Part shown: one piece after another, positions 20,790 to 49,508 of the stretch
Position numbering within the stretch: position 1 is the stretch's first letter
How the letters are laid out: each line of letters begins with the position of its first letter
Origin: a virus
Virus record (IMG/VR): IMGVR_UViG_3300020056_002272
Location: 20,662-84,661 of that record
Reading direction: 5' to 3' (one strand)
Length of the DNA: 64,000 bases
Translations under genes and position numbers: made by a program
The notes under the pieces: model-generated
The model's input: only the letters and a program-made list of their open reading frames with translations
What the model was told of the DNA's origin: nothing
The model's database searches: none

Positions 20790-21137
20790 ATGGACGAGCG
20801 GCTAGAAAAAGCATTAGATATTAGTAACTATATGGTTACACTAAACAATCAAAAACGTTTGTTAAGCGAACAATACCATGAAAACTTAATCTATTATTAT
20901 AACGGCGGGCAATTTTCTGTTTCGCAGCAATTGATTAGTTTTTGTCAAACACTTGTAAATTTAGAACAAGATCAAACTGTGCTAATTGACGACAACGGAA
21001 TTCCTATTGAAATAGAAAGTTTAAAACCGTTTGTTGAAAATTTAGTTACAACTTACTTTGAAGCAGCAAATAGATATTTGTTAGAATATACCAAATTAAA
21101 AAATCAAAGATCAGTCGAGAGTATTATGGATCTATGA
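20790..21137 (+). CDS. Hypothetical protein (first gene of the modification island)
   Basis: 115-aa ORF with GGAGG RBS and an ATGA overlap with the next gene. Confidence 0.8.
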   Translation: MDERLEKALDISNYMVTLNNQKRLLSEQYHENLIYYYNGGQFSVSQQLISFCQTLVNLEQDQTVLIDDNGIPIEIESLKPFVENLVTTYFEAANRYLLEYTKLKNQRSVESIMDL

Positions 21138-21964
21138 GCAAAGGCGTATTACTGTTTGCATTCAATAATGATAGTCTAAATTATTTAAATCAAGCTAGGC
21201 ATGCTGCAGAGCGTATTAGCAAATTTATGGATTTGCCAACCAGTATTGTAACCGATGAAAAAGTAAACATAGAACAATATCCTCATTTTGACAAAATTAT
21301 TGAAGTAAAAAATGCAGCTATAAACAATACAAGAAAATATAATGATGGATCGTTATATAGTAAATCTTTAAATTTTCGTAATTTTGGTAGAGAGCATAGT
21401 TACCGTTTGTCTCCATATAAAGAAACTATTGTTATGGATACAGATTTTGTAATTTGCAATAACAAACTTAATAATTGTTTTTTGCAGCAAAATGATTTTT
21501 TACTTTACAAAAATTCTAGTCATGTTGGACATAGAAAAAATATTTACGAATTTGAACATATTAGCGATACTAGCATTGATTTTTATTGGGCAACTGTTTT
21601 TTTCTTTAGAAAAACAAAGCTGAATGAGATATTTTTTAATTTAGTTAGCCATATAAGAGAAAATTACATACACTACAGAAATGTATATCAATTTAAAAAC
21701 ACCATGTATAGAAATGATTTTGCATTTAGTATAGCTATTCATATCATGAACGGATTTCAAAAAGGAAATTTCGCAGCAGAACTTCCCGGAAAAAACTTTT
21801 TCAGTTTAGACAAAGACATTCTTACACGTATTACAAATGATATAGTGTATATGTTAGTAGAAAAAGAAAACAGCTTAGGCGAGTATACACCAGTAAAACT
21901 TAGTGGAAGTAATATACATATTATGAACAAATTTAGCTTGGAGCGTGTAATTAATGGCAACTAA
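21134..21964 (+). CDS. GT-A fold glycosyltransferase-like protein (GT8-like)
   Basis: SPYKETIVMDTD DxD motif, YWATVFFF and RNDFAFSIA motifs. Confidence 0.6.
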   Translation: MSKGVLLFAFNNDSLNYLNQARHAAERISKFMDLPTSIVTDEKVNIEQYPHFDKIIEVKNAAINNTRKYNDGSLYSKSLNFRNFGREHSYRLSPYKETIVMDTDFVICNNKLNNCFLQQNDFLLYKNSSHVGHRKNIYEFEHISDTSIDFYWATVFFFRKTKLNEIFFNLVSHIRENYIHYRNVYQFKNTMYRNDFAFSIAIHIMNGFQKGNFAAELPGKNFFSLDKDILTRITNDIVYMLVEKENSLGEYTPVKLSGSNIHIMNKFSLERVINGN

Positions 21965-22802
21965 AAATTTTACAATGCTAGCACAAAACAATGCTAATAA
22001 TTATGTTTTACAGGCGTGCCTTTCTGCAATGAGTATACATGCCTCTAACAAAGATGTTAGTATATGTTTAATAACAAATGATCCAGTCCCGTCTAAATAT
22101 AAAAAATTATTTGATCATATAGTTGAAATACCTTGGGGAGATCATGCAGAGCACGAGGATTGGAAAATAAGCAATCGTTGGAAAATATATCATGCAATAC
22201 CTTATGACGAAACTGTTGTAATTGATACAGATATGCTTGTGTTACAAGATATATCCAGCTGGTTTGATTTTTTGCAAAACTATGATTTATTTTACACTAG
22301 TAAGGTTTATTCATACAGAGGTGAGCTTGTCGACGATACAGTGTATAGACAAGCGTTTAATAAATTCAATTTACCAAACTTATATTCGGGATTTCATTAT
22401 TTCAAAAAAAGCAACTTAGCACATGAATTTTATACATGGCTTGAAATGATAACAAATAATTGGCAGCAATTTTATAAAGCTCATGCCGGCGGTAAAATTT
22501 ATCAAAAAGTTTGTAGTATGGATGTAAGTGCTGCTATTGCAGCAAAAATAATGAATATAGAAAACAAAATTACAAATTCTAATGTAAAATATCCTAGTTT
22601 TACACATATGAAACCTCGTATACAAAATTGGAAAACATATGTTTCTGATAGATGGCAAGATAGAGTTGAACCATATTTAAGTGACGATCTTACAATCAAG
22701 ATTGGTAACTATACACAAACTGGCATTCTACACTACACTGAAAAAGATTTTGTAAGTGAGGAAATTATTCAAGCCTATGAAAAGCATTTAGGAATAAGTT
22801 GA
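21954..22802 (+). CDS. GT-A fold glycosyltransferase-like protein (GT8-like), paralog of previous gene
   Basis: PYDETVVIDTD DxD motif, NLYSGFHYFKK and ILHY motifs. Confidence 0.65.
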   Translation: MATKNFTMLAQNNANNYVLQACLSAMSIHASNKDVSICLITNDPVPSKYKKLFDHIVEIPWGDHAEHEDWKISNRWKIYHAIPYDETVVIDTDMLVLQDISSWFDFLQNYDLFYTSKVYSYRGELVDDTVYRQAFNKFNLPNLYSGFHYFKKSNLAHEFYTWLEMITNNWQQFYKAHAGGKIYQKVCSMDVSAAIAAKIMNIENKITNSNVKYPSFTHMKPRIQNWKTYVSDRWQDRVEPYLSDDLTIKIGNYTQTGILHYTEKDFVSEEIIQAYEKHLGIS

Positions 22803-23365
22803 TGGAAACAGTAAGCATTGTGACTAAAAGATTTATAGTATACGATAACAACGGAACTATTTTATCAATACAGAATTCCGAAGATAAAAATAATAACAAT
22901 CTGGTAGTAGATTTAAAAGAAGTCACTAAGTTCTTAGATGGGTCAGATAGCTTTACAAAATACAGAGTTGAATATGATTTTATAGAAAAAGTTTTTAGAT
23001 TAGTTAGTATGAAGCAATATCAAGAAACCTTTATGCGCGAATCTTTTTTGTATAAAATTCCTACTATAGGAAATGAAAACCCGGATATAAAAGTAATTCA
23101 AGATAATGTAAATTTATGTTGGAAATTAGAAATTGATCCAGAACTTCCTCTTGAATTACAAGGAAAATCTATTAACATTGATCCAAAAACACAATTCTAT
23201 AGTGTAACAAAAAAGAATGATCCTAATGTTTTGTATACTATTCTAAATTTTGACGACTCTTTAGAAATACCGTTTGATTCTAATTTTCAATTTGACAACA
23301 AACAGGTAAGTGTTTATACTATGCGTAAGTTTAATCTATACAAACACGAGGTAATAAATGACTAA
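22802..23365 (+). CDS. Hypothetical protein
   Basis: ORF coupled to both neighbours (TGATG at 22800-22804). Confidence 0.7.
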   Translation: METVSIVTKRFIVYDNNGTILSIQNSEDKNNNNLVVDLKEVTKFLDGSDSFTKYRVEYDFIEKVFRLVSMKQYQETFMRESFLYKIPTIGNENPDIKVIQDNVNLCWKLEIDPELPLELQGKSINIDPKTQFYSVTKKNDPNVLYTILNFDDSLEIPFDSNFQFDNKQVSVYTMRKFNLYKHEVIND

Positions 23366-24278
23366 CACATTCCGTGTAATTGACTACGATATCATTTATT
23401 TAAGCTACGACGAGCCTAACGCTGAGCAAAACTATGCAGATTTGTGCAAAAAAGTTCCGTGGGCCGAACGTATTCACGGCGTAAAAGGCAGCGATAGCGC
23501 CCATAAAGCAGCCGCTGAAAAATCTACAACCGATAGATTTATTACAATTGATGGTGATAACCGTATACATGATTCTTTTTTGACACAGTCGATTGATTTT
23601 GACGAAAATACAGATTTAAGTAACAAAGTTATAAGTTGGACAGCTGATAATATTATTAATGGTTTGCAATACGGTAATGGAGGTATAAAATGCTGGCCGA
23701 AACAGCATGTGTTAAATATGCGCACACACGAAAACGCACCCGATGACAATCCACATGCACAAGTTGATTTTTGTTGGGATACCGAATATGTCCAAATGAA
23801 TGGAACCTTTAGCACTATATATAATAATGCAACACCGCATCAAGCATGGCGTGCCGGTTTCCGGGAAGGTGTAAAAATGGCACTAGATCGAGGTATGCGT
23901 GTTGATGTAGAAGACTTTTACAAAAATCATTGGAAAAACCTGCATCGTTTATACATCTGGCTTATGGTAGGTGCTGATGTTGAAAACGGACGTTGGGCTA
24001 TATACGGAGCGAGAGAAGGTTTGTATAAAACAATGTGCACCGATTGGGATTTTGTAAATGTGCGTGACTTTGACTGGTTAAACACCTTTTGGGATGGCAA
24101 AGATCTTAATGAAGATCAAATGGAAGAAGAAACAATAGAGCTTGGTTATAAATTAATAGAAGAGCTGGATTTGCCTATCGCTGCTGAATCATTAAATGCT
24201 AATCAAAGTGCTTTCTTTAAAACTGTCTATCAAAATCCAGCTCGAGACAATAGCAAAAAGTTTTTAGATAGAGAGTAA
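23358..24278 (+). CDS. Glycosyltransferase-like protein (GT-A, DGD motif)
   Basis: DIIYLSYDEPNA...HGVKG...FITIDGDN...YGNGGIK...WRAGFRE; paralogous to the C-terminus of the 29477 gene. Confidence 0.55.
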   Translation: MTNTFRVIDYDIIYLSYDEPNAEQNYADLCKKVPWAERIHGVKGSDSAHKAAAEKSTTDRFITIDGDNRIHDSFLTQSIDFDENTDLSNKVISWTADNIINGLQYGNGGIKCWPKQHVLNMRTHENAPDDNPHAQVDFCWDTEYVQMNGTFSTIYNNATPHQAWRAGFREGVKMALDRGMRVDVEDFYKNHWKNLHRLYIWLMVGADVENGRWAIYGAREGLYKTMCTDWDFVNVRDFDWLNTFWDGKDLNEDQMEEETIELGYKLIEELDLPIAAESLNANQSAFFKTVYQNPARDNSKKFLDRE

Positions 24279-24281
24279 AAA

Positions 24282-25655
24282 ATGAAACGTAGCGAAAGCG
24301 AAGAAATAAAGCGCATTGATGGTATAACAAAAGAAATATCACCTACGTTTTGTTTTGCAAAATGGTATCATGCCAACATATATTTTCAAACAGGTGAAAC
24401 ACATAGTTGTTATCACCCTGCTCCCCATAAGATTGATATCGAAGCATTAAAAGATAATCCTAGTGCAATTCACAATACAGCACAAAAGAAAGAAGAACGT
24501 GCTGCTATGTTACGTGGAGAACAACCAAAAGGCTGTCAGTATTGTTGGAATATAGAAAATATGGGAGCTGATTACATAAGCGATAGAAAACAACGCAATC
24601 AAAGTATATTTTTTAAAGACAGATTAGCAGCAGTAAAAGAAGGCGGTGCCGAATTTGATGTAAATCCTGAATATTTAGAAGTGTCGTTTGGCAACGAGTG
24701 TAACTTTCGTTGCGGATACTGCCATCCAAAAGCCAGCAGCAGATATTATCAAGAAATAAAACAACACGGCCCATATGATATGGTAAAAAATCATAGATGT
24801 GACATTGATTGGTTTAACATTTACCCAGAAGAAAACAATCCATATTTAGAAGCATTTTGGCGGTGGTGGCCCGAATTAAGTAAAGAACTTACCATTTTAC
24901 GTATTACAGGCGGCGAACCTACTATACAACAAAGCACTTATAGATTATTTGACATGCTGGATGCAGATCCTAAGCCAGACTTAGAACTTAATTGTAACAG
25001 CAACTTAGGTGGCAAACCAAAACAGTTAGAAAAGTTTACAAACCGTGTAAACGACTTGTTGACAAACAACAAGATTAGACGATTCAAAATGTTTACAAGT
25101 ATTGACACTTGGGGCAAACGTGCAGAGTATATACGTGACGGATTAGACATTGAAGTGTTTGAGCGTAATTTAGATTACTTTATGCGAAACACCAATGCTC
25201 CTATGACACTTATGATTACATTTAATATCTTTAGCGTCACTACATTTCGCACACTACTAGAAAAGATACTTGAATGGCGTGGAAAGTATAACGATATAGA
25301 AACATATCGTTGGCAGCGGTTAGGATTTGACACGCCTTATCTGAAAGAACCACTACAATACGATATCAACATATTGCCAAAAAGTTACATGACTTACATG
25401 CAAGACCATTTACAGTTTATTAAAGAAAATGTCGATGATAGTCGTAAAGATGCATTTAGCACTATTGAGTATGAAAAGTTTCGACGTGTAGTAGATTATA
25501 TGGAGACTACAGAATATCCATTACACAAAATTATACAAGGCAGAACAGATTTTTATAAATTTTTTACTGAACAAGATAAACGCCGTGGTAATAATTTTTC
25601 CACAGCGTTTCCTGAAATGTTTGAATTTTTTAAACTTTGTAAAGAATACACTTAA
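24282..25655 (+). CDS. Radical SAM protein with N-terminal auxiliary Fe-S (twitch-like) domain
   Basis: CNFRCGYC, ITGGEP, N-terminal FC..SC..CQYC. Confidence 0.9.
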   Translation: MKRSESEEIKRIDGITKEISPTFCFAKWYHANIYFQTGETHSCYHPAPHKIDIEALKDNPSAIHNTAQKKEERAAMLRGEQPKGCQYCWNIENMGADYISDRKQRNQSIFFKDRLAAVKEGGAEFDVNPEYLEVSFGNECNFRCGYCHPKASSRYYQEIKQHGPYDMVKNHRCDIDWFNIYPEENNPYLEAFWRWWPELSKELTILRITGGEPTIQQSTYRLFDMLDADPKPDLELNCNSNLGGKPKQLEKFTNRVNDLLTNNKIRRFKMFTSIDTWGKRAEYIRDGLDIEVFERNLDYFMRNTNAPMTLMITFNIFSVTTFRTLLEKILEWRGKYNDIETYRWQRLGFDTPYLKEPLQYDINILPKSYMTYMQDHLQFIKENVDDSRKDAFSTIEYEKFRRVVDYMETTEYPLHKIIQGRTDFYKFFTEQDKRRGNNFSTAFPEMFEFFKLCKEYT

Positions 25656-26257
25656 AGATTCAGAGGAAGTGCAGCTTCTGCCTCAGGCCAACGCTCATCT
25701 TCCATTTCTTTGTAATATGCGTCAACTTTAAATTTCCAAAAACTTTGAAACGTTCCTCTGTATTCTAATTCGATAGGATCTTCTAAAAAGCCTTGTTTTC
25801 GCCATTCTGGTGCCCATCGTGTATGCACTGCTCTTTGTTTAGCTATAGGACTTGCATGAGTGCTTATGTATAAGGGATTATCTCTGCCACAGTGTTCTAT
25901 ACATGCCGGAATTAAAAATTGAGCACTAGGATGGTCATGCGGCCTAGGAGCATTTCTAAGATTTCGCATTGAAGTGTGCAAACGATCACCTTGCACAAGA
26001 TGTGATAATACACAGATTCTTGCGCCTATACGGTAAGAATTTTTTCCTAATATTTCTAACCCTTTTAATCTATGACTTACTACTGTTCCTATTATATTGT
26101 TATTGTTGTAAAGCAAGAAAAGTGTTGCTTCTTCCTCGTTTTTTAAGGCAGAAAGCAACATGTTAGGATCACTATTATTGTAGTATCTTTTCTTTTCTGC
26201 TTCTGCCATAAAGTTTGTTAAATCTTGCGAGCCGTCATAGGTTTCAATTTTCCACAT
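25652..26257 (-). CDS. Hypothetical protein, possible GNAT-fold acyltransferase
   Basis: LFLLY....IIG..V....YRIGARICV strand pattern is compatible with GNAT, but there is no decisive motif. Confidence 0.4.
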   Translation of the reverse strand: MWKIETYDGSQDLTNFMAEAEKKRYYNNSDPNMLLSALKNEEEATLFLLYNNNNIIGTVVSHRLKGLEILGKNSYRIGARICVLSHLVQGDRLHTSMRNLRNAPRPHDHPSAQFLIPACIEHCGRDNPLYISTHASPIAKQRAVHTRWAPEWRKQGFLEDPIELEYRGTFQSFWKFKVDAYYKEMEDERWPEAEAALPLNL

Positions 26258-27326
26258 AATTTTCCTTTAGGGGTAATTTAAATTCTTTGTTTTGCATTGC
26301 ATTTACAACAAATGTAATACGGTCTATATAACTGTCGATAAAAGGCTGTTGCAAATAAGGCATCCAAGGATCCTCTTGCAAATGTGTGTAATCGTATTGA
26401 TAACGTAAACACAATCTATTATCGGTGCTGCCTAAGCGTCTATGCTGTGTAATGCTATTATCAAACAAACACAAATCGCCGTCTTGCTGATACCAATGGT
26501 CGTAAATATATTCATCTACTTCCAGTTCGTTTTTTATTTTTTCAAGCACTTTACGAGCTTCGTTATCGCTCATGCCTTTGATACCTGTAACGGTATTAAA
26601 ACTGTAATGTAACCCTTTGTGTCCACCTGGACTGCGTATTACCATAGGTATTTCTGCATCTGGGTCTGGAGCCATGTTTTTATACATCAAGTTATCTTGA
26701 GCACTGTTTAATCCAGGATTAATTTTACCTGGAGTAAAGTTATGCAACACAACCATTTCGTCTAATTCGCTGCGAAAACTTTCACTTACATTTTGATAGT
26801 AATCTACAGTTGTCAAAAATCCAGTTGCACTTGCAGTGGTGCCTTCCATGCCCAAAAGAGCAACGCCTGGAGCAAATGCAATGTTACCGCTTTCGTTGCT
26901 GTGCCATAATAATTCTCCTTCTGCAAACATGCCTATAGGATTACCGTATTCATCCTTTTTACCGCTAACACGTATAATGTTACCCATGTCCTGTCCCACA
27001 CCTTCTCTAACACGGAAGAATCCCCATATACTGTTACGATCGTCTTCGCTTACATCAGGATGTGTCATAATACTATCTAGCTTGCCATTCCACCATGGAT
27101 ACTTTTGAAAAAGCAAACCCCAAAAGGTCATACGATCCTTGCCCCATTTTCTCATCCATTTATAATAGTTGTTTTTGTCAAGATTGGCTCCTCGTATGAT
27201 AGTAACCATTTCTTGTAGATGTATTTTACCTATTTCCATCCACTGATCATCTGACATATTATTAAAGTCAACATCGTCTATGTATACGCCAAAACTTCCG
27301 CATCCTGGTATTTTACTTATTCTCAT
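26244..27326 (-). CDS. TauD/TfdA-family Fe(II)/2-oxoglutarate dioxygenase
   Basis: FGV.I..VD N-terminus, LLWHSN, H.Y..GDL.LFDN..TQHRR C-terminal motif. Confidence 0.85.
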   Translation of the reverse strand: MRISKIPGCGSFGVYIDDVDFNNMSDDQWMEIGKIHLQEMVTIIRGANLDKNNYYKWMRKWGKDRMTFWGLLFQKYPWWNGKLDSIMTHPDVSEDDRNSIWGFFRVREGVGQDMGNIIRVSGKKDEYGNPIGMFAEGELLWHSNESGNIAFAPGVALLGMEGTTASATGFLTTVDYYQNVSESFRSELDEMVVLHNFTPGKINPGLNSAQDNLMYKNMAPDPDAEIPMVIRSPGGHKGLHYSFNTVTGIKGMSDNEARKVLEKIKNELEVDEYIYDHWYQQDGDLCLFDNSITQHRRLGSTDNRLCLRYQYDYTHLQEDPWMPYLQQPFIDSYIDRITFVVNAMQNKEFKLPLKENYVEN

Positions 27327-27969
27327 TTAATCTCTCCTTTGTCCTGATCAGCCATTTGAAATAATATTCTAGTTGTTTTTCATTACGTGGCCCGTCTAGC
27401 AATTCTATAGAACCTATGTAATTATCTGGATTAAAGAAGTCTGCGATATCTATTGAGTAATCTGCTTCGGGTGTAAAGTTAACAGGAACCAACTTATCCC
27501 ATTTTTCTCTATTTGTATAATAACGTGTGTTAAATCCAATATTATACTTTTCCATATCTGTTTCGTTTGTTAGACCAGAATAATATGTAATGACATTTTC
27601 TAATAATAAATTTCTCATTACAGGCTTGTAAGTTATGCCTACAGTTTTTGCATAATCTCCAAAATGCTTTTTTATTATGCGGGCTTGTTTACTTTTAAAA
27701 TTTCCTATCCAAATCTTTTTATCTGATTTTTCTAATAATGACTCGATTTCGCCTAAGCGGTCAGTCCAATCTATATCTCTAAATGTCATTGGATTATTGT
27801 CTGTAAAATCTAATACATATTGTTCGTGATTATTATGTATTAGATGCCCGGTGCTAGTTATGTCAGGAGTGCATGGCTGCACCCAATCATCACTCCAACC
27901 TGCTAGTGTGTTTATGAAAACATCGCAAATTGTTCCGTAAGGGCATATGCCAAAATAAAGTTTACTCAT
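27313..27969 (-). CDS. Hypothetical protein
   Basis: 218-aa ORF with AAGGA RBS and its own promoter. Confidence 0.75.
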   Translation of the reverse strand: MSKLYFGICPYGTICDVFINTLAGWSDDWVQPCTPDITSTGHLIHNNHEQYVLDFTDNNPMTFRDIDWTDRLGEIESLLEKSDKKIWIGNFKSKQARIIKKHFGDYAKTVGITYKPVMRNLLLENVITYYSGLTNETDMEKYNIGFNTRYYTNREKWDKLVPVNFTPEADYSIDIADFFNPDNYIGSIELLDGPRNEKQLEYYFKWLIRTKERLNENK

Positions 27970-27987
27970 TGTTGATCCTTTTTATTC

Positions 27988-28016: not shown

Positions 28017-28021
28017 CCTTT

Positions 28022-29401: not shown

Positions 29402-29420
29402 TTTTATTCTCCTGTGCATA

Positions 29421-29440: not shown

Positions 29441-29469
29441 TTGACAAGAATAATATTTTCTACTATAAT
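29441..29469 (+). promoter_or_regulatory. Sigma70-type promoter, perfect consensus (leaderless transcript)
   Basis: TTGACA(29441-46)-17-TATAAT(29464-69); ATG at 29477 with no SD. Confidence 0.85.
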
Positions 29470-41719: not shown

Positions 41720-42939
41720 ATGACATAGACAAGGTATACTGCCCATTGCCCTTTAGGGCATTAGCATTTAAAGAATTTATAAATGGAAAATTATCAGGTG
41801 CTACGCCTTGCTGTATGATGCTTAACACGCTAGATGACGGATTTGAAGATACAACTAAAAGATTTGAAATACCTAATGTAGAAAATTTAACACCAGATGA
41901 AATTTTCAATAGCGAACGTATGAAAGAACTGCGACAAAACATACTTAATGGTAAAAGAGATTCGGCCTGTAAGGTATGTTGGCAAGCAGAAGACAGAGGC
42001 GTTAAAAGTTATAGAGAATATATGAAGGCCGATGAGGTAAATTTTGAACCTAAATTACGAGAAATAGATCTAAGTATTAGTAATGTTTGTAATTTAGCAT
42101 GTAGAATGTGTGCTCCTACAAATAGCAACTTGTTACAAAAAGATCATAAGTTTTTTAAAGACAATGGTAAGTATGGAGAAATATTAAAAGCAACAAATGG
42201 ACGTTGGTATACTAGTTTTCCATATGATGGCGCAAAATCAAAGCAATGGCACTGGATTGTTGAAAATATACAACACTTAGAAACATTAAAAATGTCAGGC
42301 GGCGAGCCATTTTACGATAGAAAAGTAATAGATCTTTTACAAATGTGTGTTGACAAAGGCTATGCAAAAGATATTTCGCTAGAATTTCACACCAATACTA
42401 TTTGTTTTGACGATAAAATTATTGGATTATTAAAAGAATTTAAAAATAGACACACTTTTAGTATAGACGGAGTTGGAAAAGTATATGAATACATCAGGCA
42501 TCCAGCAACATTTGAGCAGCTTGATGCAAGTTTACAATTATATGTCAAACACATGCCTCAAAAAATGTTGCACATAAATTATGTTGTTTCTATACTTAAT
42601 GTTTTTAGCACAATTGATTTTTTAGACTACATGGAAAGTTTAAATGTTGAATATCATGTGTTTTTCAGCGAGGTATTTCCTAATACCAGAGGCACAGGGT
42701 TGCGGCATTTAAGTTATGATTTACTTGAGCAAGCACACTGCCTTGTTTTAGACAATTTTGACAAATATGGCAAAGAAACTATGGTAAGATTAGAACAAGT
42801 TGTTAAAAATGCAAAAGAAAAATGCAATACAAACCAATCTCTGGCATTAAAAGAGGTAAAATTATTTGATGAAAGTCGTAATCAGTCTTATGAAGATTAT
42901 TTGGATAAAAGAATTTGCGAGTGGTTGAATGGAAAATAA
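41716..42939 (+). CDS. Radical SAM protein with N-terminal twitch-like domain
   Basis: YCPLPF..PCC..CKVC; CNLACRMC; SGGEP. Start taken as ATG41716 (ATGA overlap). Confidence 0.9.
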   Translation: MNDIDKVYCPLPFRALAFKEFINGKLSGATPCCMMLNTLDDGFEDTTKRFEIPNVENLTPDEIFNSERMKELRQNILNGKRDSACKVCWQAEDRGVKSYREYMKADEVNFEPKLREIDLSISNVCNLACRMCAPTNSNLLQKDHKFFKDNGKYGEILKATNGRWYTSFPYDGAKSKQWHWIVENIQHLETLKMSGGEPFYDRKVIDLLQMCVDKGYAKDISLEFHTNTICFDDKIIGLLKEFKNRHTFSIDGVGKVYEYIRHPATFEQLDASLQLYVKHMPQKMLHINYVVSILNVFSTIDFLDYMESLNVEYHVFFSEVFPNTRGTGLRHLSYDLLEQAHCLVLDNFDKYGKETMVRLEQVVKNAKEKCNTNQSLALKEVKLFDESRNQSYEDYLDKRICEWLNGK

Positions 42940-43894
42940 CGCTTGGTCTACTAAAACACTAGAATGGATAGATATAGAACTTACCAGTTTTTGCAATATC
43001 AGGTGTAAAGGCTGTTTTAGAGTCCTATCGGAACATGCAGATAAAATTTTAAACACAACCTACTTAGATTTAGAAACAATACAAAATAAATTTAAAAAAG
43101 AAATGTTTCCAAACATAAGAATAATTAATTTTTGCGGAAGTGTAGACGAACCTTGCAGCCATCCCCAATTTTTTGATATTGTAAAACACTTTGCAACATG
43201 GAATTGCCACATCAATATTGCCACCAATGGTAGTTTACGAACAACACAATGGTGGGAAACACTTGCAAAAATACTGCCTAAAAGTCATAGAGTAACTTGG
43301 GGCATTGATGGTAGTGATGAACTGTCTGAAGTGTATAGAGAAGGTAGTAATTTCAAAAAAGTCCAAGAAAATTTTAGGGCTTTTATTAAAGCAGGCGGAC
43401 AAAGTGTATGGCAATTTATTAGTTTTGAGCATAATGAACATCAACTTGAATCTGCAAAAAAACAAGCAAAAGACGAAGGGTTTAAAGATTTCAAAACTAT
43501 AATCAGTCATAGAGAAGATACAAAAGATATTAAACACAAAAGAGAAAAAAGAGATCCAAATCCTCAGCCTCGTCCTTGCATTAGTTGCAAGTATGCCAAT
43601 CAAAAAAGGATCTTTGTAAATCATATGGGCAATGTAATACCTTGTTGTCACTTAAACAGTAAAATGTTAGAGTTTCCTGTAAGCGGTGCTATACATGATA
43701 AATTTGAGAATTTATTGATTGAACATGATTACGAAAATGATATAAATTTAAAAAATGTTAGTATTGAGCAGGCAATGAACGGCAAAATATGGAATGACAT
43801 ACAATCTAGTTGGACAGATAATGAACGTATACCTCGTTGCGAGCATGTATGTGCAGAAAAGAAGAGAGATAAGTTTTTAAAAGAAAAACTTTGA
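42929..43894 (+). CDS. Radical SAM protein with C-terminal SPASM/twitch domain
   Basis: CNIRCKGC; WGIDG; FEHNEHQ; IPCC..CEHVC. Confidence 0.9.
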   Translation: MENNAWSTKTLEWIDIELTSFCNIRCKGCFRVLSEHADKILNTTYLDLETIQNKFKKEMFPNIRIINFCGSVDEPCSHPQFFDIVKHFATWNCHINIATNGSLRTTQWWETLAKILPKSHRVTWGIDGSDELSEVYREGSNFKKVQENFRAFIKAGGQSVWQFISFEHNEHQLESAKKQAKDEGFKDFKTIISHREDTKDIKHKREKRDPNPQPRPCISCKYANQKRIFVNHMGNVIPCCHLNSKMLEFPVSGAIHDKFENLLIEHDYENDINLKNVSIEQAMNGKIWNDIQSSWTDNERIPRCEHVCAEKKRDKFLKEKL

Positions 43895-43919
43895 CAAAAA
43901 TAGCATTGGTTAGTATAAT
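43891..43919 (+). promoter_or_regulatory. Sigma70-type promoter, perfect consensus (leaderless transcript)
   Basis: TTGACA(43891-96, overlapping the upstream TGA stop)-17-TATAAT(43914-19); ATG at 43925 with no SD. Confidence 0.85.
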
Positions 43920-43924
43920 ATAAT

Positions 43925-45043
43925 ATGAGCGAAGATCTAAAATGGAGTAACTATGATTTCACCAAAATCCCCTTTGACAATATTGTGTCTGTTGGGCAAC
44001 GCACTTTGCTGTATCGTGATATTTTTACTGTATCCTGGTTACTGGGCAGATTTTGCAACTACCGTTGCTCTTACTGCTGGCCCTACGCCAGAAGTGATCG
44101 TAAAGACCACCGACCTACCGAGCTCTGTTTACTCACAGTGGATGAAATTAAACGACAAGCCCGGAATAACGGATTTAATAGCTTTCATTTTAGCCTTAGT
44201 GGGGGTGAACCTACTTTTCATCCCGGTTATCTGGACATACTTAGCCACCTTGCTGAAGATGTAGATAACACTAATTATACCAGTGTTCATATGACATCAA
44301 ACTGTTCAAGAAATATGAAATGGTTTGAAACTTATGTAGAACGTGCAAAACCCTTTCATAGAGCAAGTATTACAGCAAGTTTGCACACAGAACATTTAGA
44401 TACAAAGGAGAAGATGCAGGACTTTGCAGACAAGTTAATCCTGTGTCAAGAGCATGATGTTCAAATTACAATTAACATGGTTATGGTGCCTGAATGGTTT
44501 GAAAGAGACTGGGAAAATGCACTGTTCTTTCATGAGCAAGGAATCAACGTTACCCTCAAACCACAATCGGATCCTACTGCATCACGTGTGGTCGACGGAT
44601 ATAAAGAAGAAGATTTAAAACGACTTTGGAATGGAATGCCACAACGTGCATACACAGAGAGCAAACGTAAATGGTCTGATCGTCCTAAGCCTAAATTTGA
44701 AATACCAAAAGATGTTATGCATAAGCCAGATGCTAGTGTGCCATGGCATTTTCAAGTAGAATTTAGAGATAGTGAAGGCAAGGCATGGTATATGGATCAA
44801 GCAGAACGTTTTAATGCATTTAACTTCAACAAATTCAAAGGATGGAATTGTAATGCAGGTTATCAAGGTATTATTATACGTGAACCTGATGGCAGTATAA
44901 AACGTTCCTATAGTTGTCATGACGTGCCTTTGGGAAATATAGAAACAGGATTTAAATTGTTTGATAAAGCAATGCCCTGTATTACAAATAGTTGTGTAAG
45001 TAGTGCAGATAGTAAGATACCTAAAAGGAAAGTAAATCAGTAA
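43925..45043 (+). CDS. Radical SAM protein (paralog of 40006)
   Basis: CNYRCSYC; LSGGEP; FKGWNC; C-terminal Cys cluster. Confidence 0.9.
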   Translation: MSEDLKWSNYDFTKIPFDNIVSVGQRTLLYRDIFTVSWLLGRFCNYRCSYCWPYARSDRKDHRPTELCLLTVDEIKRQARNNGFNSFHFSLSGGEPTFHPGYLDILSHLAEDVDNTNYTSVHMTSNCSRNMKWFETYVERAKPFHRASITASLHTEHLDTKEKMQDFADKLILCQEHDVQITINMVMVPEWFERDWENALFFHEQGINVTLKPQSDPTASRVVDGYKEEDLKRLWNGMPQRAYTESKRKWSDRPKPKFEIPKDVMHKPDASVPWHFQVEFRDSEGKAWYMDQAERFNAFNFNKFKGWNCNAGYQGIIIREPDGSIKRSYSCHDVPLGNIETGFKLFDKAMPCITNSCVSSADSKIPKRKVNQ

Positions 45044-45075: not shown

Positions 45076-45309
45076 ATGACTGACATAGCCGAAAGAGTAA
45101 AAAAAGTTATAAAGGAATCATTAGCTAAAGATTCAGTGACTGAATCATCTAATTTTATAGACGACTTAGGCGCCGATAGTCTTGATGTCGTAGAGATTGT
45201 AATGGATTTAGAAGAGGAATTTGGCATTACAATTGAAGATACTGATGCCGAACATATAAGAACTGTAGGCGATGCTATTGAATTTTTGGAAAAAATATTA
45301 AATACATAA
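45076..45309 (+). CDS. acpP: Acyl carrier protein
   Basis: 77-aa acidic protein with the DDLGADSLD phosphopantetheine site, EEEFGI.I.D and TVGD motifs; AAGGA RBS. Confidence 0.95.
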
Positions 45310-45322: not shown

Positions 45323-46048
45323 ATGATCAAATATTCTCATGCTATTTTTATTTTACAAATAATTGCTTATTGTAGTATTATACCAATGTTGTTATATGCA
45401 GATTGGTATCATTATATTATAGCAATTTTAATTTATTTTTTAAATGGTTGTTTAGGAATGATAATGGGATATCATAGACTTGTCACTCATAGAAGTTTTG
45501 AAGCACCGGTATGGTTTGAAAAAATGATTGTATTGTTTGCTACAATTGGTTTAACTGGACCTGCTATTGATTGGGTAGCAATACACAAAGCGCATCACAG
45601 ATATGCTGATACAGAAAAAGATCCACACTCCCCAGATTATTTAGGAAAATTTAGAGTGCATTTTTTGACTATGTTTGCAAACGTTAATCCAAAATATGCA
45701 GGCCGCATTCTCAAAAATACATTTTATAGGTTTCAGCGCAAATATTATTTTTTAATCAATATATTGTATGCTGTATGTCTTTATGCTGTTGACCCGTTTG
45801 CTGTAATTTATGCTTGGTTATTTCCTGCTGCATTAGTGATAGGGTTTGGCACAGCTATCTTGAGCACTTCGCACAGGAAAAACAAGCCGCATAATGATTT
45901 TATATTAGCAATATTGACTTGGGGTGATGCATTCCATGAGGAGCATCACGATCATCCTAATAAAGCAAGATTACACAAATGGGATATCACAGGAATAATT
46001 ATTGAAACTTTTTTCAAAACTAAATACACAACAAAAGATGCAAATTGA
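45323..46048 (+). CDS. Membrane-bound fatty-acid desaturase (delta-9-like)
   Basis: His boxes HRLVTH, HKAHH, HEEHH; DPHSP; hydrophobic segments. Confidence 0.9.
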   Translation: MIKYSHAIFILQIIAYCSIIPMLLYADWYHYIIAILIYFLNGCLGMIMGYHRLVTHRSFEAPVWFEKMIVLFATIGLTGPAIDWVAIHKAHHRYADTEKDPHSPDYLGKFRVHFLTMFANVNPKYAGRILKNTFYRFQRKYYFLINILYAVCLYAVDPFAVIYAWLFPAALVIGFGTAILSTSHRKNKPHNDFILAILTWGDAFHEEHHDHPNKARLHKWDITGIIIETFFKTKYTTKDAN

Positions 46049-46054: not shown

Positions 46055-46207
46055 ATGGGCTGGAAAGGCATAGGAATCAAACCTAATCAGTTGTCTTTTT
46101 GGCAGATAGATTATGCAATAAGATACGGCATACTTTTTAAAAACTTAGAGGAATTAGATGAATACCTGGAAAAAAAGAACCGAATTACCTGTATACAAAC
46201 AGCTTAA
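46055..46207 (+). CDS. Small hypothetical protein (50 aa, not in ORF track)
   Basis: GAGG RBS and ATG46055; translates to MGWKGIGIKPNQLSFWQIDYAIRYGILFKNLEELDEYLEKKNRITCIQTA; fills an otherwise empty gap. Confidence 0.45.
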   Translation: MGWKGIGIKPNQLSFWQIDYAIRYGILFKNLEELDEYLEKKNRITCIQTA

Positions 46208-46883
46208 ACAATTTCAGTTTGATCCAAAACTGTTAGTGGAAGCATATGAAGAATTTACTTCAAATAAAGTCTGGGACGGGCTGGGTAACGAATATTCGAA
46301 CATGTGCAAAACATATACTAATTTACCAAGTATGTTTTTTCCAGAAGACGAGTTAAAGGGTGTAACTTGTATTACCGAATTAGATTTTGAACAAACAAGC
46401 TATAAGCAAATTAGTTTGGTAGGATTTGATGAGAATTACAATTTATCTCAACGCAAAGAAAAATCAGGAACACGATGGGATAATCAAATTGCAAAAAACA
46501 ACCCAAAAGCTGATGAAAGATTTTTTAGGAAGCGCAAAGATGATGTGCCAGAATATTTTAATTATGTATTAGACACTATTGGTAGAGATGTTGTTCACCG
46601 CACACGATTTGCAAATTTAATGCCCAAATCGTCAATTGATCCACATATTGATTATAATACAGAATATGGTGTTAGACTGCATATACCTATTATAACAAAT
46701 GATGGTTGCACTTTTGGAGGAATAGATCCAACTACTGGTGAAACAAAGGAAAGACATTTTCCAGCAGATGGTAGTGTATGGTTTATCAATCCAGGAGTAA
46801 AGCATTGGGCAACTAACGACGGTGATGAAGAAAGAATACATTTAATTGTAAGTGTAGATAGTCAGGAGATTTTAAATGATTAA
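46158..46883 (+). CDS. Fe(II)/2OG oxygenase, Asp/Asn beta-hydroxylase (LpxO-like) family
   Basis: PHID...RLHIPI.TN...H.ATN...RIHL. Confidence 0.8.
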   Translation: MNTWKKRTELPVYKQLKQFQFDPKLLVEAYEEFTSNKVWDGLGNEYSNMCKTYTNLPSMFFPEDELKGVTCITELDFEQTSYKQISLVGFDENYNLSQRKEKSGTRWDNQIAKNNPKADERFFRKRKDDVPEYFNYVLDTIGRDVVHRTRFANLMPKSSIDPHIDYNTEYGVRLHIPIITNDGCTFGGIDPTTGETKERHFPADGSVWFINPGVKHWATNDGDEERIHLIVSVDSQEILND

Positions 46884-47721
46884 AGGTGCAATAGGATCGG
46901 GAACAATGACGCCATTAGTTTGGCGCATAAAAGCATTGAATATAAGTTTTCTTATTGGAGTGTTAAGTATTCCTTTTTTCTTTTCTTGGAACTGGTTACT
47001 TATAGGATTGTTTGTAACATTTTGGTTTGAGGTCCTTGTAGGTAATGGATATTGTCACAGGTATTATGGCCATAAAACTTACGAGCCAAAACCTTGGTTG
47101 AAACCGATACTAGACTTTTTAGTGCATTACCAGGGATTTGGAAGTTTATTAACATGGAAAGCGTATCATATCAGACATCATGAGTTTAGTGATGAAGCAG
47201 AGGATAGTCATAATCCTCAACATGGAATAAAATATATCTTTAGTGGCGCTTGGGGACAGTTACCAAAAGAATACTACGCTGAACAATTAAAGGATCCTGT
47301 CTTAGTTTGGTATCATAGGAATTATTGGAAAATGCATGTGGCTATTAGTATATTCTGGTTAAGTTTAGGATCTATATTAGCTGGAGGATTTGATCCTAGA
47401 TTTTGGATTTTCTTGTATGCTATGCCTGGTTTATATGCTGTGGTAAGTGCATATGTTTTAATCTACGGACCTCACGTAGATGGAGAACCTGTTGACCGTT
47501 GGTGGCTAGATTTTTATACATTCGGCGAAGGTAATCATTTGTATCATCACATATATCCGTGGAGTTATCGCTTCGGTAAATGGGACATTACAGGCTTTTT
47601 AATAGAAAAATTAACTATGAAAAAAGATCCTGAAAAAATAGCAGCAGTGAGACAATCATGGATAGACCATTGGGGATATGAAAATGGATATGGACAAGCG
47701 TATAAAAAAGCACCTAAATGA
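46876..47721 (+). CDS. Membrane-bound fatty-acid desaturase (second copy)
   Basis: His boxes HRYYGH, HIRHH, HLYHH; DSHNP; GEG.H. Confidence 0.9.
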   Translation: MIKGAIGSGTMTPLVWRIKALNISFLIGVLSIPFFFSWNWLLIGLFVTFWFEVLVGNGYCHRYYGHKTYEPKPWLKPILDFLVHYQGFGSLLTWKAYHIRHHEFSDEAEDSHNPQHGIKYIFSGAWGQLPKEYYAEQLKDPVLVWYHRNYWKMHVAISIFWLSLGSILAGGFDPRFWIFLYAMPGLYAVVSAYVLIYGPHVDGEPVDRWWLDFYTFGEGNHLYHHIYPWSYRFGKWDITGFLIEKLTMKKDPEKIAAVRQSWIDHWGYENGYGQAYKKAPK

Positions 47722-48310
47722 TGTTTATACAAATTTAGAAGGCAACCCTACTGATTTTTTAATACCAGTTCCATCTTTAGATGCATACATAAGTTCAAAT
47801 GATTTTATATCTGTATACAATGAAGTGACTACAGATAAAAAAGACAGATACGCATATGGACACAAAATATATGCTGACGATTTTCCTGTGTTTGATAGAT
47901 TACGTGAAGCTTATCCTGCTTTTAAAGATTATTTCTTTTTTCTCAAAACAAATAGAGTAGTAAAAACATATCCTATACATATTGATGGTCCTGGCGAATT
48001 TGATTCTAAAGCAGGCGTAAACTGGCCTTTAATAAATTGCGATGAGCAAAGTGATACAGTGTGGTATGAGCCTGAGGAGCATGATTTTTACTATCATGAA
48101 GTCCAAAATAGTATATTTTTAAAAGATAATGTAAAAACAAAAGAAATATATAAATTTCATTTTGTTGATCATACACCTCATTTGTTTCGCGGCGATGTGT
48201 GGCATACTGGCATAAACCATAAACATCAAAGAGAATTTAGAGTAATGGTTAAGTGGGAGCTCACTGTAAATAATTGGCAAGAGGCGCAAAATGCACTTTT
48301 TATTGCCTAA
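47678..48310 (+). CDS. Putative cupin Fe(II)/2OG oxygenase
   Basis: IHIDG..NWPL...T.WY...WH..N....R pattern. Confidence 0.5.
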   Translation: MKMDMDKRIKKHLNDVYTNLEGNPTDFLIPVPSLDAYISSNDFISVYNEVTTDKKDRYAYGHKIYADDFPVFDRLREAYPAFKDYFFFLKTNRVVKTYPIHIDGPGEFDSKAGVNWPLINCDEQSDTVWYEPEEHDFYYHEVQNSIFLKDNVKTKEIYKFHFVDHTPHLFRGDVWHTGINHKHQREFRVMVKWELTVNNWQEAQNALFIA

Positions 48311-49508
48311 TGACAAAGAAGTAACTGATTTCCGTGCTAGACTATATGAAGAAGATTTTGGTATATCTGCATCGTATTTAAGCAAATTTCAATACAAGAG
48401 CGATTACGATGACGAATTTGCTGGGCATAAAGATTTAGAAGATATTTACAAATATAGTGATATAAAATATTTAAACAGTGGCATTGAACAAGTTTTGATG
48501 ACTGAAGATAGAACAATGATATCTGGCGGAACCTTCTTTGACGGAGAGTATTATCGTGCAGGACATTTAGTATACTGTTTGAAAAATTATCGAAAGCAAA
48601 ACTACAGTTGGATGTATCAGGACTTTGGTGCATTATACGGTCATATTAAAAGAGCAATAGAATTAAATATTCCTAAGGTAATAATGTGTCACTGGCCGCA
48701 TAACTCTCGTATAAGAGCAAACATAGAAAACCACAAAAGAAAACTTATTGGAAGGCACTTGCATTATTTTATGCAAATGGAGCATTTAGGTGCCTGGAAT
48801 GTTAATGAGGTAGAGCAAGAAGTTTTTGTTTATGATATTCCTAAACGTTTTAAGGAAATTGAAAAATTCACAATGACTGAAAATATTTTACCAATGGGAG
48901 AATATGAAACTTTACCGGTTACTTCTAAATATGGTAATACTCCCGAAAAATATGGATGTGTTGTAAAATTAAATATTGACCCAATTGATCATGAACAAAT
49001 TCGTCACGACATGCATACGTTTAAAGAAACAAAAAAACATTATTTTCAAGAACGGTTGGATATATATAAAGTTCCGCCTAGTGTAGCGGCGAATTACCTC
49101 AAATACGTAGGATTTTCGGGAGAAACCTATGATAGCACAGGTTTAAATATCACTGGCACAGCAGAGCTTGACCCTAATATACCTAATAGTATTTTAGAGG
49201 CATACAGTAAAGTTCAATCTAAATTGTTTAGGCAAAATTTTGTAGTTGCAATGAACGGATGGAATACAAAATGGCATAGAGATCATTCCACACCATTAAT
49301 GCATGGATTTAGATTAATGATACCGATTGATCCTGTTGTTATGTATTTTAGAACTGGAAAAGTAGAATTGCAGCCAGGACATTATTATTTTGTTAATAAT
49401 AGTTTAGAACACAAAGGATCATTGCCAGATGGATACGAAAGAAGAGCAAATCTAATGGCACAAATGGATAGCGATATTGATATTTTAAATGGTGATATTA
49501 TTTTATAA
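48291..49508 (+). CDS. Two-domain protein: N-terminal GNAT-like domain and C-terminal Asp/Asn beta-hydroxylase-like oxygenase
   Basis: C-terminal WHRD..RLMIPI..G..YF.N...H....R. The N-terminal YR...VY....YR..A.ELN pattern is only tentatively GNAT. Confidence 0.55.
   Translation: MHFLLPNDKEVTDFRARLYEEDFGISASYLSKFQYKSDYDDEFAGHKDLEDIYKYSDIKYLNSGIEQVLMTEDRTMISGGTFFDGEYYRAGHLVYCLKNYRKQNYSWMYQDFGALYGHIKRAIELNIPKVIMCHWPHNSRIRANIENHKRKLIGRHLHYFMQMEHLGAWNVNEVEQEVFVYDIPKRFKEIEKFTMTENILPMGEYETLPVTSKYGNTPEKYGCVVKLNIDPIDHEQIRHDMHTFKETKKHYFQERLDIYKVPPSVAANYLKYVGFSGETYDSTGLNITGTAELDPNIPNSILEAYSKVQSKLFRQNFVVAMNGWNTKWHRDHSTPLMHGFRLMIPIDPVVMYFRTGKVELQPGHYYFVNNSLEHKGSLPDGYERRANLMAQMDSDIDILNGDIIL

Follow-up and report, generated by a model that had tools for sequence, protein, structure and literature searches.

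We analyzed a 64,000-nucleotide (nt) stretch of the IMG/VR virus record IMGVR_UViG_3300020056_002272 (positions 20,662 to 84,661; hereafter, the window), which represents the final 64 kb of an 84.7-kb contig, with a focus on an enzyme-rich island between tail-fibre genes at window positions 20790-49508. Genes are named by their first window coordinate and lie on the plus strand unless marked (-). The island comprises 32 tightly packed open reading frames (ORFs), confirming the count of about 32 given in an initial annotation from the sequence alone. A family could be supported for approximately 22 of them, and the other 10 are orphans, for which Pfam gave no useful match at E<=5; PHROGs yielded no useful match for 17 of the 20 island proteins searched. 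Among the enzyme families that the initial annotation had listed, nine radical S-adenosylmethionine (SAM) enzymes, four glycosyltransferase (GT)-like proteins, a methyltransferase, a TauD-family and an LpxO-type oxygenase, an acyl carrier protein (ACP), and two desaturases were corroborated by hidden Markov models, profiles, and folds. Weak matches only were obtained for two PP-loop ATPases (TilS, PP-loop, and QueC-like), a short-chain dehydrogenase/reductase (SDR; 41165, E 0.003), and the C-terminus of 48291 (E 0.035), and the proposed SGNH protein (37162), cupin oxygenase (47678), and GNAT-like proteins (25652 and the N-terminus of 48291) found nothing in Pfam even at E<=5. Hydrophobic segments are confined to the desaturases, with all other island proteins lacking them.

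Gene content of the island

Conservation was assessed by tblastn with every island protein against 160 related loci, 80 on the left (core) side and 80 on the right (anchor) side. The left end of the island is formed by six genes, and for five of them (20790, 21134, 21954, 23358, and 24282), orthologues at 58-86% identity are present in 68-80 of the 80 loci. The first, 20790 (20790..21137; 76/80 loci, median 69%), encodes a conserved protein of 115 amino acids (aa) without family; a DUF4376 lead was discarded as a match at chance level. It is followed by two paralogous GT8-like glycosyltransferases, 21134 (21134..21964; 68/80 loci) and 21954 (21954..22802; 76/80 loci, median 68%). A joint family profile of both matched glycogenin/GT8 with an E-value of 1.2e-4, over positions 4-104 only, and D91/D93 of the DxD motif are invariant; Pfam Glyco_transf_8 matched neither protein. 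The 188-aa product of 22799 (22799..23365), likewise without family, holds a fixed place, with a counterpart in 78/80 loci, and evolves rapidly: its identity to these counterparts is 27-45%, reaching at least 50% in just 1, a divergence as fast as that of the fibres.

The fifth gene, 23358 (23358..24278), which we use as the left anchor, encodes a glycosyltransferase with a predicted GT-A fold. Its AlphaFold2 model (predicted local distance difference test, pLDDT, 84) found as best structural matches exclusively GT-A or nucleotidyltransferase folds, including PBCV-1 A064R (2p6w), SunS, and WrtF, with Z-scores of 8.3-10.3 and a root mean square deviation of approximately 3 Å over 131-142 residues, and both aspartates of its DGD motif (D65/D67) are invariant. 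No sequence family matched 23358, whose own family is represented on 496 IMG/VR contigs and in more than 8000 clusters, all of them unnamed. The sixth gene, 24282 (24282..25655; 72/80 loci, median 86%), encodes a radical SAM enzyme of the N-terminal twitch type.

Four further plus-strand genes follow beyond an opposite-strand cassette and recur in 24-46 of the 80 loci, where the length of the loci sets a limit to the count. In 29477 (29477..31126), three N-terminal repeats precede a second GT-A domain, which shows a weak Glyco_tranf_2_3 match and is a 34%-identical paralogue of 23358. The repeats, read from the sequence at 29477-30600, are arranged in tandem, each approximately 95 aa long (YDR..HA..NG..DGI...E..YRF...VAS.PKPYD), and resemble the first strand-helix of the GT-A domain; the homologue in Ralstonia phage RsoM2USA (see below) is devoid of them. 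The next gene, 31110 (31110..32156; 46/80 loci), joins a helical-repeat domain to a class I SAM methyltransferase fold (residues ~180-348, AlphaFold2 pLDDT 91.6). Foldseek returned at least 500 matches at E<=0.001, and the 50 listed are nearly all methyltransferases (probability 1.0), with a TM-score of 0.62 for NodS; the loop L187-C-A-G-W-Y192, corresponding to the Gly-rich SAM loop, is invariant. For both 23358 and 31110, folds were needed for the assignment, because PDB sequence searches with the GT-A and the methyltransferase profile gave no match. The small protein 32143 (32143..32367; 74 aa) is highly conserved (77-84% identical in 52 loci). Its ORF has a TTG start and overlaps the end of the methyltransferase gene, and both a separate small protein and a frameshift extension are possible. 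The last of the four, 32360 (32360..33439; 38 loci), is a radical SAM gene whose product carries its CX3CX2C motif at residue 18 and a Cys-rich, SPASM-like part at the C-terminus.

The intervening cassette lies on the minus strand and starts with an embedded fibre-like gene, 28022(-) (28022..29419; counterparts in 53/80 loci), whose C-terminal 47 aa are 38% identical to those of fibre 51917 (E 5e-5). Behind it follow 2 passengers, namely 27313(-) (27313..27969), which encodes a 218-aa protein without family and is absent from all 160 loci, and 26244(-) (26244..27326), a TauD/TfdA-family Fe(II)/2-oxoglutarate oxygenase (PF02668, E 6.8e-16) with an orthologue in 0/80 left loci, as well as the 201-aa protein 25652(-) (25652..26257; low-identity counterparts in 59/80 loci), the last gene of this operon.

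The nine radical SAM genes of the island are 24282, 32360, 33432(-), 34709, 35771, 40006, 41707, 42929, and 43925. Each encodes CX3CX2C once, a motif found in no other island protein, and all match Pfam Radical_SAM (PF04055), with 35771, 40006 (39.6 bits), 41707, 42929 (36.7 bits), and 43925 (56 bits) exceeding the gathering threshold of 29.5 bits and the other four, including 32360 with 27.4 bits, scoring 25.7-27.7 bits. Two of those four, 24282 and 33432, nevertheless exceed the cut-off of NF033640 (N_Twi_rSAM; 170 bits), the family to which four island proteins belong over approximately positions 1-398 of 398: 24282 (314 bits), 33432(-) (33432..34682; 245 bits), 35771 (35771..37165; 428 bits), and 41707 (41707..42939; 238 bits). 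The other five reach at most 57 bits and are, hence, non-members. The four paralogues share an N-terminal auxiliary Cys cluster (invariant C9, C27, C90, and C93 before C146/C150/C153), and Pfam places SPASM N-terminal of Radical_SAM in these proteins. In contrast, SPASM-like parts are C-terminal in 32360, 34709 (34709..35758; preceded by a CATAAATA box 22 nt upstream), and 42929 (42929..43894; SPASM E 6.6e-4), and a C-terminal, twitch-like part with GWNC is present in 40006 (40006..41181; 24/80 loci) and 43925 (43925..45043). The latter is the lineage-conserved right anchor, found in 80/80 loci at a median identity of 87% and on 167 IMG/VR contigs at 83-94%; the clusters that hold 43925 and 20790 are virus-only and unnamed. 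Among the N-twitch enzymes, 35771 is a frequent cassette (36/80 right loci), and 33432 and 41707 are variable, with 1 orthologue at >=50% identity in 160 loci for the former and none for the latter.

Interspersed with the radical SAM genes are two paralogous PP-loop ATPases (E 5e-35), 37779 (37779..38630; SSGADS motif, TilS_N E 0.003) and 39171 (39171..40016; SGGADS motif, PP-loop E 0.046), which combine the PP-loop with a QueC-like C-terminal Cys motif. They cannot be counted as QueC proteins by family, as Pfam QueC (PF06508) gave no match and the PHROG QueC-like match of 37779 (2e-5) spans 56 residues. The same stretch encodes proteins of 205 aa (37162; 37162..37779; no family at E<=5) and 190 aa (38627; 38627..39199; no family match) and a short SDR-like protein (41165; 41165..41719; adh_short E 0.003; 14/80 loci).

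Behind the right anchor, a lipid-type module begins with the ACP 45076 (45076..45309), which contains the GADSLD serine motif and matches PP-binding (PF00550) with 48.4 bits compared to a cut-off of 20.8 (E 1.1e-12). It is followed by a membrane fatty-acid desaturase, 45323 (45323..46048), with three His boxes (HRLVTH, HKAHHRY, and HEEHH) and 5 hydrophobic segments; an oxygenase of the Asp/Asn beta-hydroxylase (LpxO) family, 46158 (46158..46883; Asp_Arg_Hydrox, PF05118, E 5.6e-12); and a second membrane desaturase with hydrophobic segments, 46876 (46876..47721). The desaturases score 43.7 and 33.7 bits, respectively, against a FA_desaturase (PF00487) cut-off of 29.7. The island closes with a 210-aa protein without family match (47678; 47678..48310), for which a suspected similarity to 46158 was not found, and a 405-aa protein without family (48291; 48291..49508), the C-terminus of which is weakly LpxO-like in comparison to 46158.

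Conserved anchors, exchanged cassettes, and promoters

Among deposited phages, the GT-A protein 23358 has a single match, which originates from the cultured Ralstonia phage RsoM2USA (MG752970; 47% identity over 95% of the length). There, ORF354-347 form a contiguous series in the same order, comprising homologues of 20790 (ORF354, 34%), 21134 (37%), and 21954 (35%), a 184-aa gene, and homologues of 23358 (ORF350) and 24282 (ORF349, 36%), and ending with counterparts of the GT-A domain of 29477 (ORF348, 39%) and the methyltransferase half of 31110 (ORF347, 30%). Thus, seven of these genes are matched at 30-47% identity; all eight are annotated as hypothetical. The RsoM2USA core directly follows a giant virion protein and structural proteins confirmed by mass spectrometry (PMC8504454), and in both phages the gene before the core is a homologous, 18217-like fibre-type gene. 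In the 33-kb stretch that was examined, RsoM2USA represents a minimal version, with one radical SAM gene and neither the variable array nor anchor 43925 nor the lipid module; ~90 kb from the core, there is a second weak N-twitch-like match. Since the RsoM2USA homologues are contiguous and in the same order, the core of the window phage is one ancestral cassette that, in this lineage, was split by the fibre cassette and extended by the variable array.

In total, only about 10 island genes are co-conserved. Among the 71 loci that include the full 10 kb upstream of the right anchor, the middle genes occur in 27 presence/absence patterns; 12 of these loci contain none of the window's middle genes at >=50% identity, and 33432, 37162, 37740, 38627, and 41707 have no orthologue in any. 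The middle positions in relatives are always occupied by other radical SAM and PP-loop paralogues. One travelling module, consisting of PP-loop 39171, radical SAM 40006, and SDR-like 41165, was found in seven loci, sometimes in changed order. In 12 contigs, the GT-A anchor and the radical SAM anchor are 16.8 to 40.2 kb apart, compared to 20.6 kb here, and radical SAM genes are concentrated in near-complete relatives as well, with 13 of 14 lying within ~30 kb in G803, 13 of 14 within ~21 kb in G804, and 13 of 17 within ~44 kb in G805. The sequence comparison, therefore, describes genes between the anchors that swap as cassettes of 1-3 genes or are unique to one phage. Similarly, the ACP/desaturase/LpxO-type module looks like a rare passenger, because the ACP is found in 0/160 loci and desaturase/hydroxylase orthologues in one only (L002), where the operon arrangement is partly seen.

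The region 20790-49508 accordingly reads as a mosaic and not as one 29-kb pathway. The initial annotation's proposal of a single pathway, resembling a biosynthetic gene cluster, for an acylated glycan did not hold, given the small co-conserved set, the assortment of the middle genes as cassettes, and the rarity of the acyl module. Independent assortment, which had been named as an observation that would speak against such a pathway, applies to part of the island: core and anchor co-occur, but the middle and right-hand genes do not. This mosaicism also raises the possibility that there is no common product and that unrelated auxiliary genes (morons) pile up beside fibre genes, each acting alone on host metabolism. 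Besides the patchy presence of genes, this would fit the absence of the ACP/desaturase module from relatives together with similar genes scattered in other marine phages, the low GC content of the island relative to its flanks, and the ten orphan ORFs. However, we consider it improbable, as marine phages and a Ralstonia phage have the core genes in the same order, near-complete relatives carry most of their radical SAM genes in one block beside the same transferases, the operons are tight and overlapping with conserved promoters, and the same enzyme mix recurs in bacterial loci (see below).

Perfect TTGACA-N16-18-TATAAT sites occur 5 times in the window, compared to 0.2 expected, and four of them are located on the coding strand just before 19675 (19628..19656, +; TTGACA-N17-TATAAT), 20790 (20736..20764, +), 29477 (29441..29469, +), and 43925 (43891..43919, +). 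The site of the core operon is matched in at least 11 of 12 positions at the same place in 61/73 relatives. Upstream of 29477, the -10 element ends 7 nt before the ATG, and 20/36 relatives have a match of at least 11/12, all at 6 nt from the start codon; upstream of 43925, it ends 5 nt before the ATG, and 56/80 relatives have such a match, 51 of these 56 with a spacing of 5-6 nt. An internal control gene never exceeded 8/12. With so short a distance from the -10 element to the ATG (5-7 nt in nearly all relatives) and no Shine-Dalgarno sequence, the mRNAs of 29477 and 43925 are probably leaderless. The fifth perfect site (32014-32041, -) is antisense within the methyltransferase gene (31110-32156) and is followed by no gene on the minus strand; either chance arising from coding constraints or an antisense promoter is possible.

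A second type of element, NATAAATA, is strongly depleted in the window (TATAAATA occurs once, compared to 11.7 expected), and of its 13 copies, 9 are located just before gene starts, most of them in the form GATAAATA. Copies at 11751, 16632, 29428(-), 53820(-), 58941(-), and 59634(-) are examples, and the genes concerned include the fibres 16662 and 51917 and the embedded fibre-like gene, where GATAAATA at 29421-29428 is accompanied by AGGAG. This NATAAATA/GATAAATA box is probably the late promoter of the lineage, which would make the embedded fibre gene and the three genes behind it, TauD among them, late genes. The enzyme operons, in contrast, are predicted to be read by a sigma-70-type polymerase, because conserved sigma-70 promoters precede them, and their timing is probably early. 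Short contigs of one salt-marsh RNA library match five island genes and the flanking S8-type gene, mostly exactly, including one exact match inside the anchor 43925 (43977-44214); these are contigs of gene pieces for which DNA carry-over is possible, and they neither prove transcription nor allow a start site to be read.

With respect to its origin, the window DNA represents a fragment of an uncultured lineage of 330-380 kb jumbo myophages. This placement is made because its AAA ATPase is 50% identical to the counterpart in PA5oct-type jumbo phages, because neither megablast with 21 kb of the window against 50,697 deposited phage records nor tblastn with the anchor radical SAM 43925 revealed a relative, and because IMG/VR holds hundreds of related contigs, two of which are rated 93-100% complete by CheckV (330 and 382 kb). 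The lineage is nearer to PA5oct and RsoM2USA than to T4-like phages of ~140-170 kb. Near-identical DNA was found in at least 11 salt-marsh metagenome runs as well as in wetland, freshwater, and marine runs.

Fibre genes had been described on both flanks and inside the island, and this was borne out, on the flanks by PHROG and Pfam matches. The left flank contains tail-collar and tail-fibre matches (12390-19644), directly preceded by a giant ORF of 4880 aa (window 2-11755, contig 17774-32416, +), the C-terminal part of which contains a 90-aa domain common to PA5oct-type virion structural proteins; searches with this C-terminus found that domain only and no VrlC or pelagiphage match. Just outside the island start, 19675 (19675..20724, +) belongs to the fibre family (24% over 340 aa to fibre 18217-19644, E 1e-8) and has low-identity counterparts in 67/80 loci. 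On the right flank, a subtilase (S8-type)/plastocyanin-like protein (49511-51907) shows 41-44% identity to proteins encoded by S-SSM7 and S-SCSM2R, both large cyanomyophages, and is followed by a fibre gene with an Mtd_N domain (51917-53782; Pfam). The late operon of this fibre is headed by a second Asp/Asn beta-hydroxylase-family gene (53836-54402, -), which has counterparts in 40/80 related loci. The GC content between 20000 and 50000 is 0.32-0.36, compared to 0.37-0.42 in the structural flanks, i.e., the island is more AT-rich.

Further downstream, a GTP cyclohydrolase I gene (63252-63950, -) adjoins a weak radical SAM gene (62198-63091) that is possibly QueE-like. Together with the QueC-like PP-loop genes and the early-type promoters, this pair at 62198-63950 would be compatible with hypermodification of the phage DNA against restriction, through glycosylated bases or 7-deazaguanine derivatives made with the QueC-like ATPases. 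Nevertheless, we regard this reading as very improbable: three large relatives (two of them at least 93% complete) contain neither TGT/DpdA nor a full-length QueC, the PP-loop genes are variable passengers, the GT-A/GT8-type transferases are located in the fibre and not in the replication module, and the core is conserved together with fibre genes in RsoM2USA. Among the three targets proposed by the initial annotation, hypermodified DNA is, thus, the least likely one, and both virion and host envelope are retained.

Probable substrate and acceptor of the island enzymes

The NF033640 family was detected above its cut-off in 0/14 reference (control) genomes and, among the genomes sampled from two phyla, in 3/401 and 4/401, with one genome in each sample being a metagenome-assembled genome (MAG) that probably holds phage contigs. 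In one of the bacterial genomes (G103), four tandem N-twitch radical SAMs are encoded inside an ABC-transporter-type O-antigen locus, together with Wzm, RmlD, and RmlC, two methyltransferases (one of them TylF-type), and a WbsX transferase. One of these NF033640 copies is fused to Wzt in a single 854-aa frame (ABC_tran+Wzt_C+SPASM+Radical_SAM). In another genome (G174), a GT2 and a nucleoside diphosphate-sugar epimerase/dehydratase are encoded within a few kb of the copy. Moreover, the NF033640 neighbourhoods of four Bacteroidota genomes hold 12 radical SAM enzymes, 6 PhyH oxygenases, and 3 B12-radical SAM enzymes, as well as methyltransferases, GDSL esterases, a carbamoyltransferase, and one GT2, and thereby mirror the enzyme mix of the phage island. 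Longer fused forms of 35771 were limited to one 879-aa protein with SPASM and Radical_SAM only, the Wzt fusion being too distant for this word-based search. A genome scan with a single protein gave matches only in contigs of two MAGs, JBDNIA01 (Crocinitomicaceae; L161, L163, and L165) and CANEUJ01 (Neisseriaceae; L162), at 75-85% identity to the phage genes and, in one MAG, on at least 5 contigs; these N-twitch genes probably reflect phage DNA that was assigned to the MAGs during binning, rather than a host signal.

A sugar substrate is favored by these contexts, since N-twitch radical SAMs are located in an O-antigen locus and one is fused to Wzt. Sugar precedents for twitch/SPASM radical SAMs exist in BtrN, DesII, BlsE, and NeoN, which cover oxidation, deamination, decarboxylation, and epimerisation. 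No island enzyme reached the cut-off of any of these families, and the weak BlsE match of 34709 (E 9.5e-7) is far below it. A glycan would also be the most economical substrate, because the core contains four transferases and a NodS-like methyltransferase, and because all island enzymes except the desaturases are soluble and no peptide substrate was found.

The competing view is that the radical SAM array modifies proteins or peptides directly, in the manner of peptides that are made on ribosomes and modified after translation (RiPPs), introducing cross-links, epimerisation, or hydroxylation into fibres or a small precursor, with sugars being secondary or absent. All nine enzymes are of SPASM/twitch types, whose characterized members are mostly peptide maturases, the conserved 74-aa protein precedes radical SAM 32360, and Asp/Asn-hydroxylase-family genes lie beside fibre genes. 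However, the 84.7-kb contig, read in all six frames, encodes neither a small protein ending in (Cys-His-x-Ser)x3-RGRR nor any other repeat peptide, the 74-aa protein lacks Cys and is conserved over its full length, no family of the RiPP recognition element (RRE/PqqD) or leader-peptidase type appeared in Pfam scans of the window proteins, and the bacterial fusion partner Wzt is a glycan exporter. We, therefore, rate a RiPP-like function as quite improbable.

From gene families, folds, synteny, mosaicism, and promoters, we infer a sugar substrate, its chemistry, and its target, and interpret the region as glycan assembly plus combinatorial tailoring, forming the enzyme part of a hypervariable tail-fibre-linked island, a reading to which we assign a probability of roughly 55%. 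Accepting it, four layers could be distinguished. The first would be a conserved glycosylation core that comprises the 115-aa protein, the two GT8-like transferases, the 188-aa protein, the GT-A transferase, and the N-twitch radical SAM, and continues with the second GT-A transferase, the methyltransferase, the 74-aa protein, and radical SAM 32360, under host-type sigma-70 promoters. The opposite-strand fibre cassette, under its presumed late promoter and with oxygenase passengers, would represent the second layer. As a third layer, seven more SPASM/twitch radical SAMs, the two QueC-like PP-loop ATPases, and the SDR-like gene may constitute an exchangeable tailoring array that ends at the lineage-conserved radical SAM, and the rare lipid-type passenger module (ACP, two desaturases, and LpxO-type hydroxylase) would be the fourth. 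In this scheme, soluble cytoplasmic transferases would build a short glycan on an acceptor from host nucleotide sugars, and the methyltransferase, radical SAM, PP-loop, and oxygenase enzymes would then edit its sugars, with epimerisation, deoxygenation, C-C chemistry, amidation, and hydroxylation as possible reactions. Through the turnover of cassettes, the product would come to differ between strains. The initial annotation's view of a phage-borne, fibre-linked enzyme island with glycan-type chemistry is, in this respect, supported.

Several points weigh against this interpretation. In the window, no gene for nucleotide-sugar synthesis, initiating transferase, flippase, or acceptor was identified, and ten ORFs of the island are orphans. 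Unrelated roles are conceivable for the ACP/desaturase module and perhaps for further cassettes. To our knowledge, NF033640 has no characterized member, so that no substrate follows from membership, and SPASM/twitch enzymes modify peptides more often than sugars. Furthermore, the early-type sigma-70 promoters of the enzymes mismatch the late timing of the fibre genes. The bacterial context comprises six genomes, one of which has a clear O-antigen locus, and the phage GT-A profile was not found in five bacterial genomes with N-twitch arrays, a search that had no positive control and, therefore, shows little.

As for the acceptor of such a glycan, we tentatively prefer the phage's own fibre or other virion proteins over a host envelope glycan, at odds short of even. 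A virion acceptor is favored because phages of unrelated hosts share the linkage of the core to homologous fibre genes, because a fibre gene lies inside the island and oxygenases share late operons with fibres, because the 188-aa core protein evolves at fibre-like speed, and because the transferases are soluble, like the virion-glycosylating ones of PBCV-1 and mycobacteriophages. With the same glycan chemistry, the acceptor might instead be the host envelope, with cytoplasmic O-chain or capsule intermediates being intercepted early in infection. This alternative, which we consider rather unlikely, draws on the conserved sigma-70-type promoters of the enzyme operons (host RNA polymerase, probably early), on the bacterial N-twitch radical SAMs in an O-antigen export locus with one fused to Wzt, and on GT8 being typical of lipopolysaccharide synthesis, and an envelope role has been proposed for pelagimyophage glycosyltransferases by Zaragoza-Solas et al. 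(PMC7029224). Yet no membrane-associated transferase, flippase, or Gtr-type component accompanies the transferases, all of which are soluble, the investment would be big for a lytic phage, and an envelope role does not need the strict fibre-gene linkage seen in phages of unrelated hosts. The corresponding effect, likewise rather unlikely, would be an altered surface that blocks superinfection or prevents progeny from adsorbing to infected cells and debris.

Extending the preferred combination of glycan tailoring and virion acceptor, the island could be an enzymatic diversity generator for the virion surface, in which the four-transferase core glycosylates fibres and rapidly exchanged cassettes rewrite the sugars by a radical chemistry that has so far not been described for glycans; we offer this as a speculative proposal with low odds. 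If it is true, close relatives would display different fibre coats, an equivalent, at the level of glycan chemistry, of fibre-gene swapping or diversity-generating retroelements, and N-twitch radical SAMs would be a new glycan-editing class that phages have in common with bacterial O-antigen pathways. More generally, sugar editing by these enzymes, if it takes place, would amount to a new branch of glycan chemistry, represented in abundant aquatic jumbo phages as well as in bacterial O-antigen loci. The island is the largest variable block beside the host-recognition genes of a widespread lineage and probably bears on host range or superinfection. Since the cultured phage RsoM2USA carries the minimal core, the question is open to bench testing, and the conserved, apparently leaderless promoters with sigma-70 consensus provide a handle on the transcription programme of uncultured phages.

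Comparison with known systems

No characterized pathway matches the island, in line with the initial annotation, and we know of almost no arrays of 9-17 radical SAM paralogues in one locus in enzymology and of none in a virus. The closest likeness is offered by the host recognition cluster (HRC), which Zaragoza-Solas et al. (2020, PMC7029224) described in pelagimyophages and cyanomyophages. This large non-syntenic island, with a mean size of 34-45 kb, is located in the structural module and combines tail fibres and GT8-type glycosyltransferases with Asp/Asn hydroxylases and with cassettes of radical SAM genes that vary from one close relative to the next. The island described here is similarly hypervariable and located in the structural module with fibres, GT8-like transferases, and radical SAM cassettes. 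However, the HRC has been described by annotation in ~140-170 kb T4-like phages of SAR11 and cyanobacteria, in contrast to the 330-380 kb jumbo lineage studied here, and the core has no match among genes of cultured pelagiphages. While the HRC sits between VrlC and the neck gene gp14, the contig analyzed here ends before any neck gene, and the S8-type flank protein matches cyanomyophages at 41-44%. Conserved core, anchor genes, or promoter architecture had not previously been defined for the HRC.

Virus-encoded cytoplasmic glycosylation of virions offers a second comparison. The systems of PBCV-1 (A064R) and of mycobacteriophages (capsid and tail) glycosylate virions without host secretory machinery. 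Their transferases are likewise soluble, and A064R structurally matches 23358, but the chlorovirus and mycobacteriophage systems lack a radical SAM array, and attachment to virion proteins is, for the island, a proposal from its genes. The bacterial Wzm/Wzt O-antigen locus (G103) resembles the island in that tandem N-twitch radical SAMs are grouped with transferases and sugar methyltransferases. The island differs in having no transporter, no rhamnose genes, and different transferases, and its GT-A family was not found in G103 in the search mentioned above.

Lipid genes, finally, are not foreign to marine T4-like phages. ACPs are found in the Prochlorococcus phages P-HM1 and MED4-213, desaturase 45323 shares 31% identity with the FA_desaturase gene of pelagimyophage Mosig, and stearoyl-CoA desaturase and fabF were reported in freshwater pelagimyophages (PMC7029224). 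In contrast to these, a single operon behind the anchor radical SAM unites the ACP, two desaturases, and the LpxO-type hydroxylase in the window. As far as we know, the Wzt fusion and O-antigen context of the N-twitch radical SAMs, the conserved sigma-70 promoters with probably leaderless transcripts, the definition of the island by two anchors, and the placement of the ACP/desaturase module as a passenger are new in comparison to these systems.

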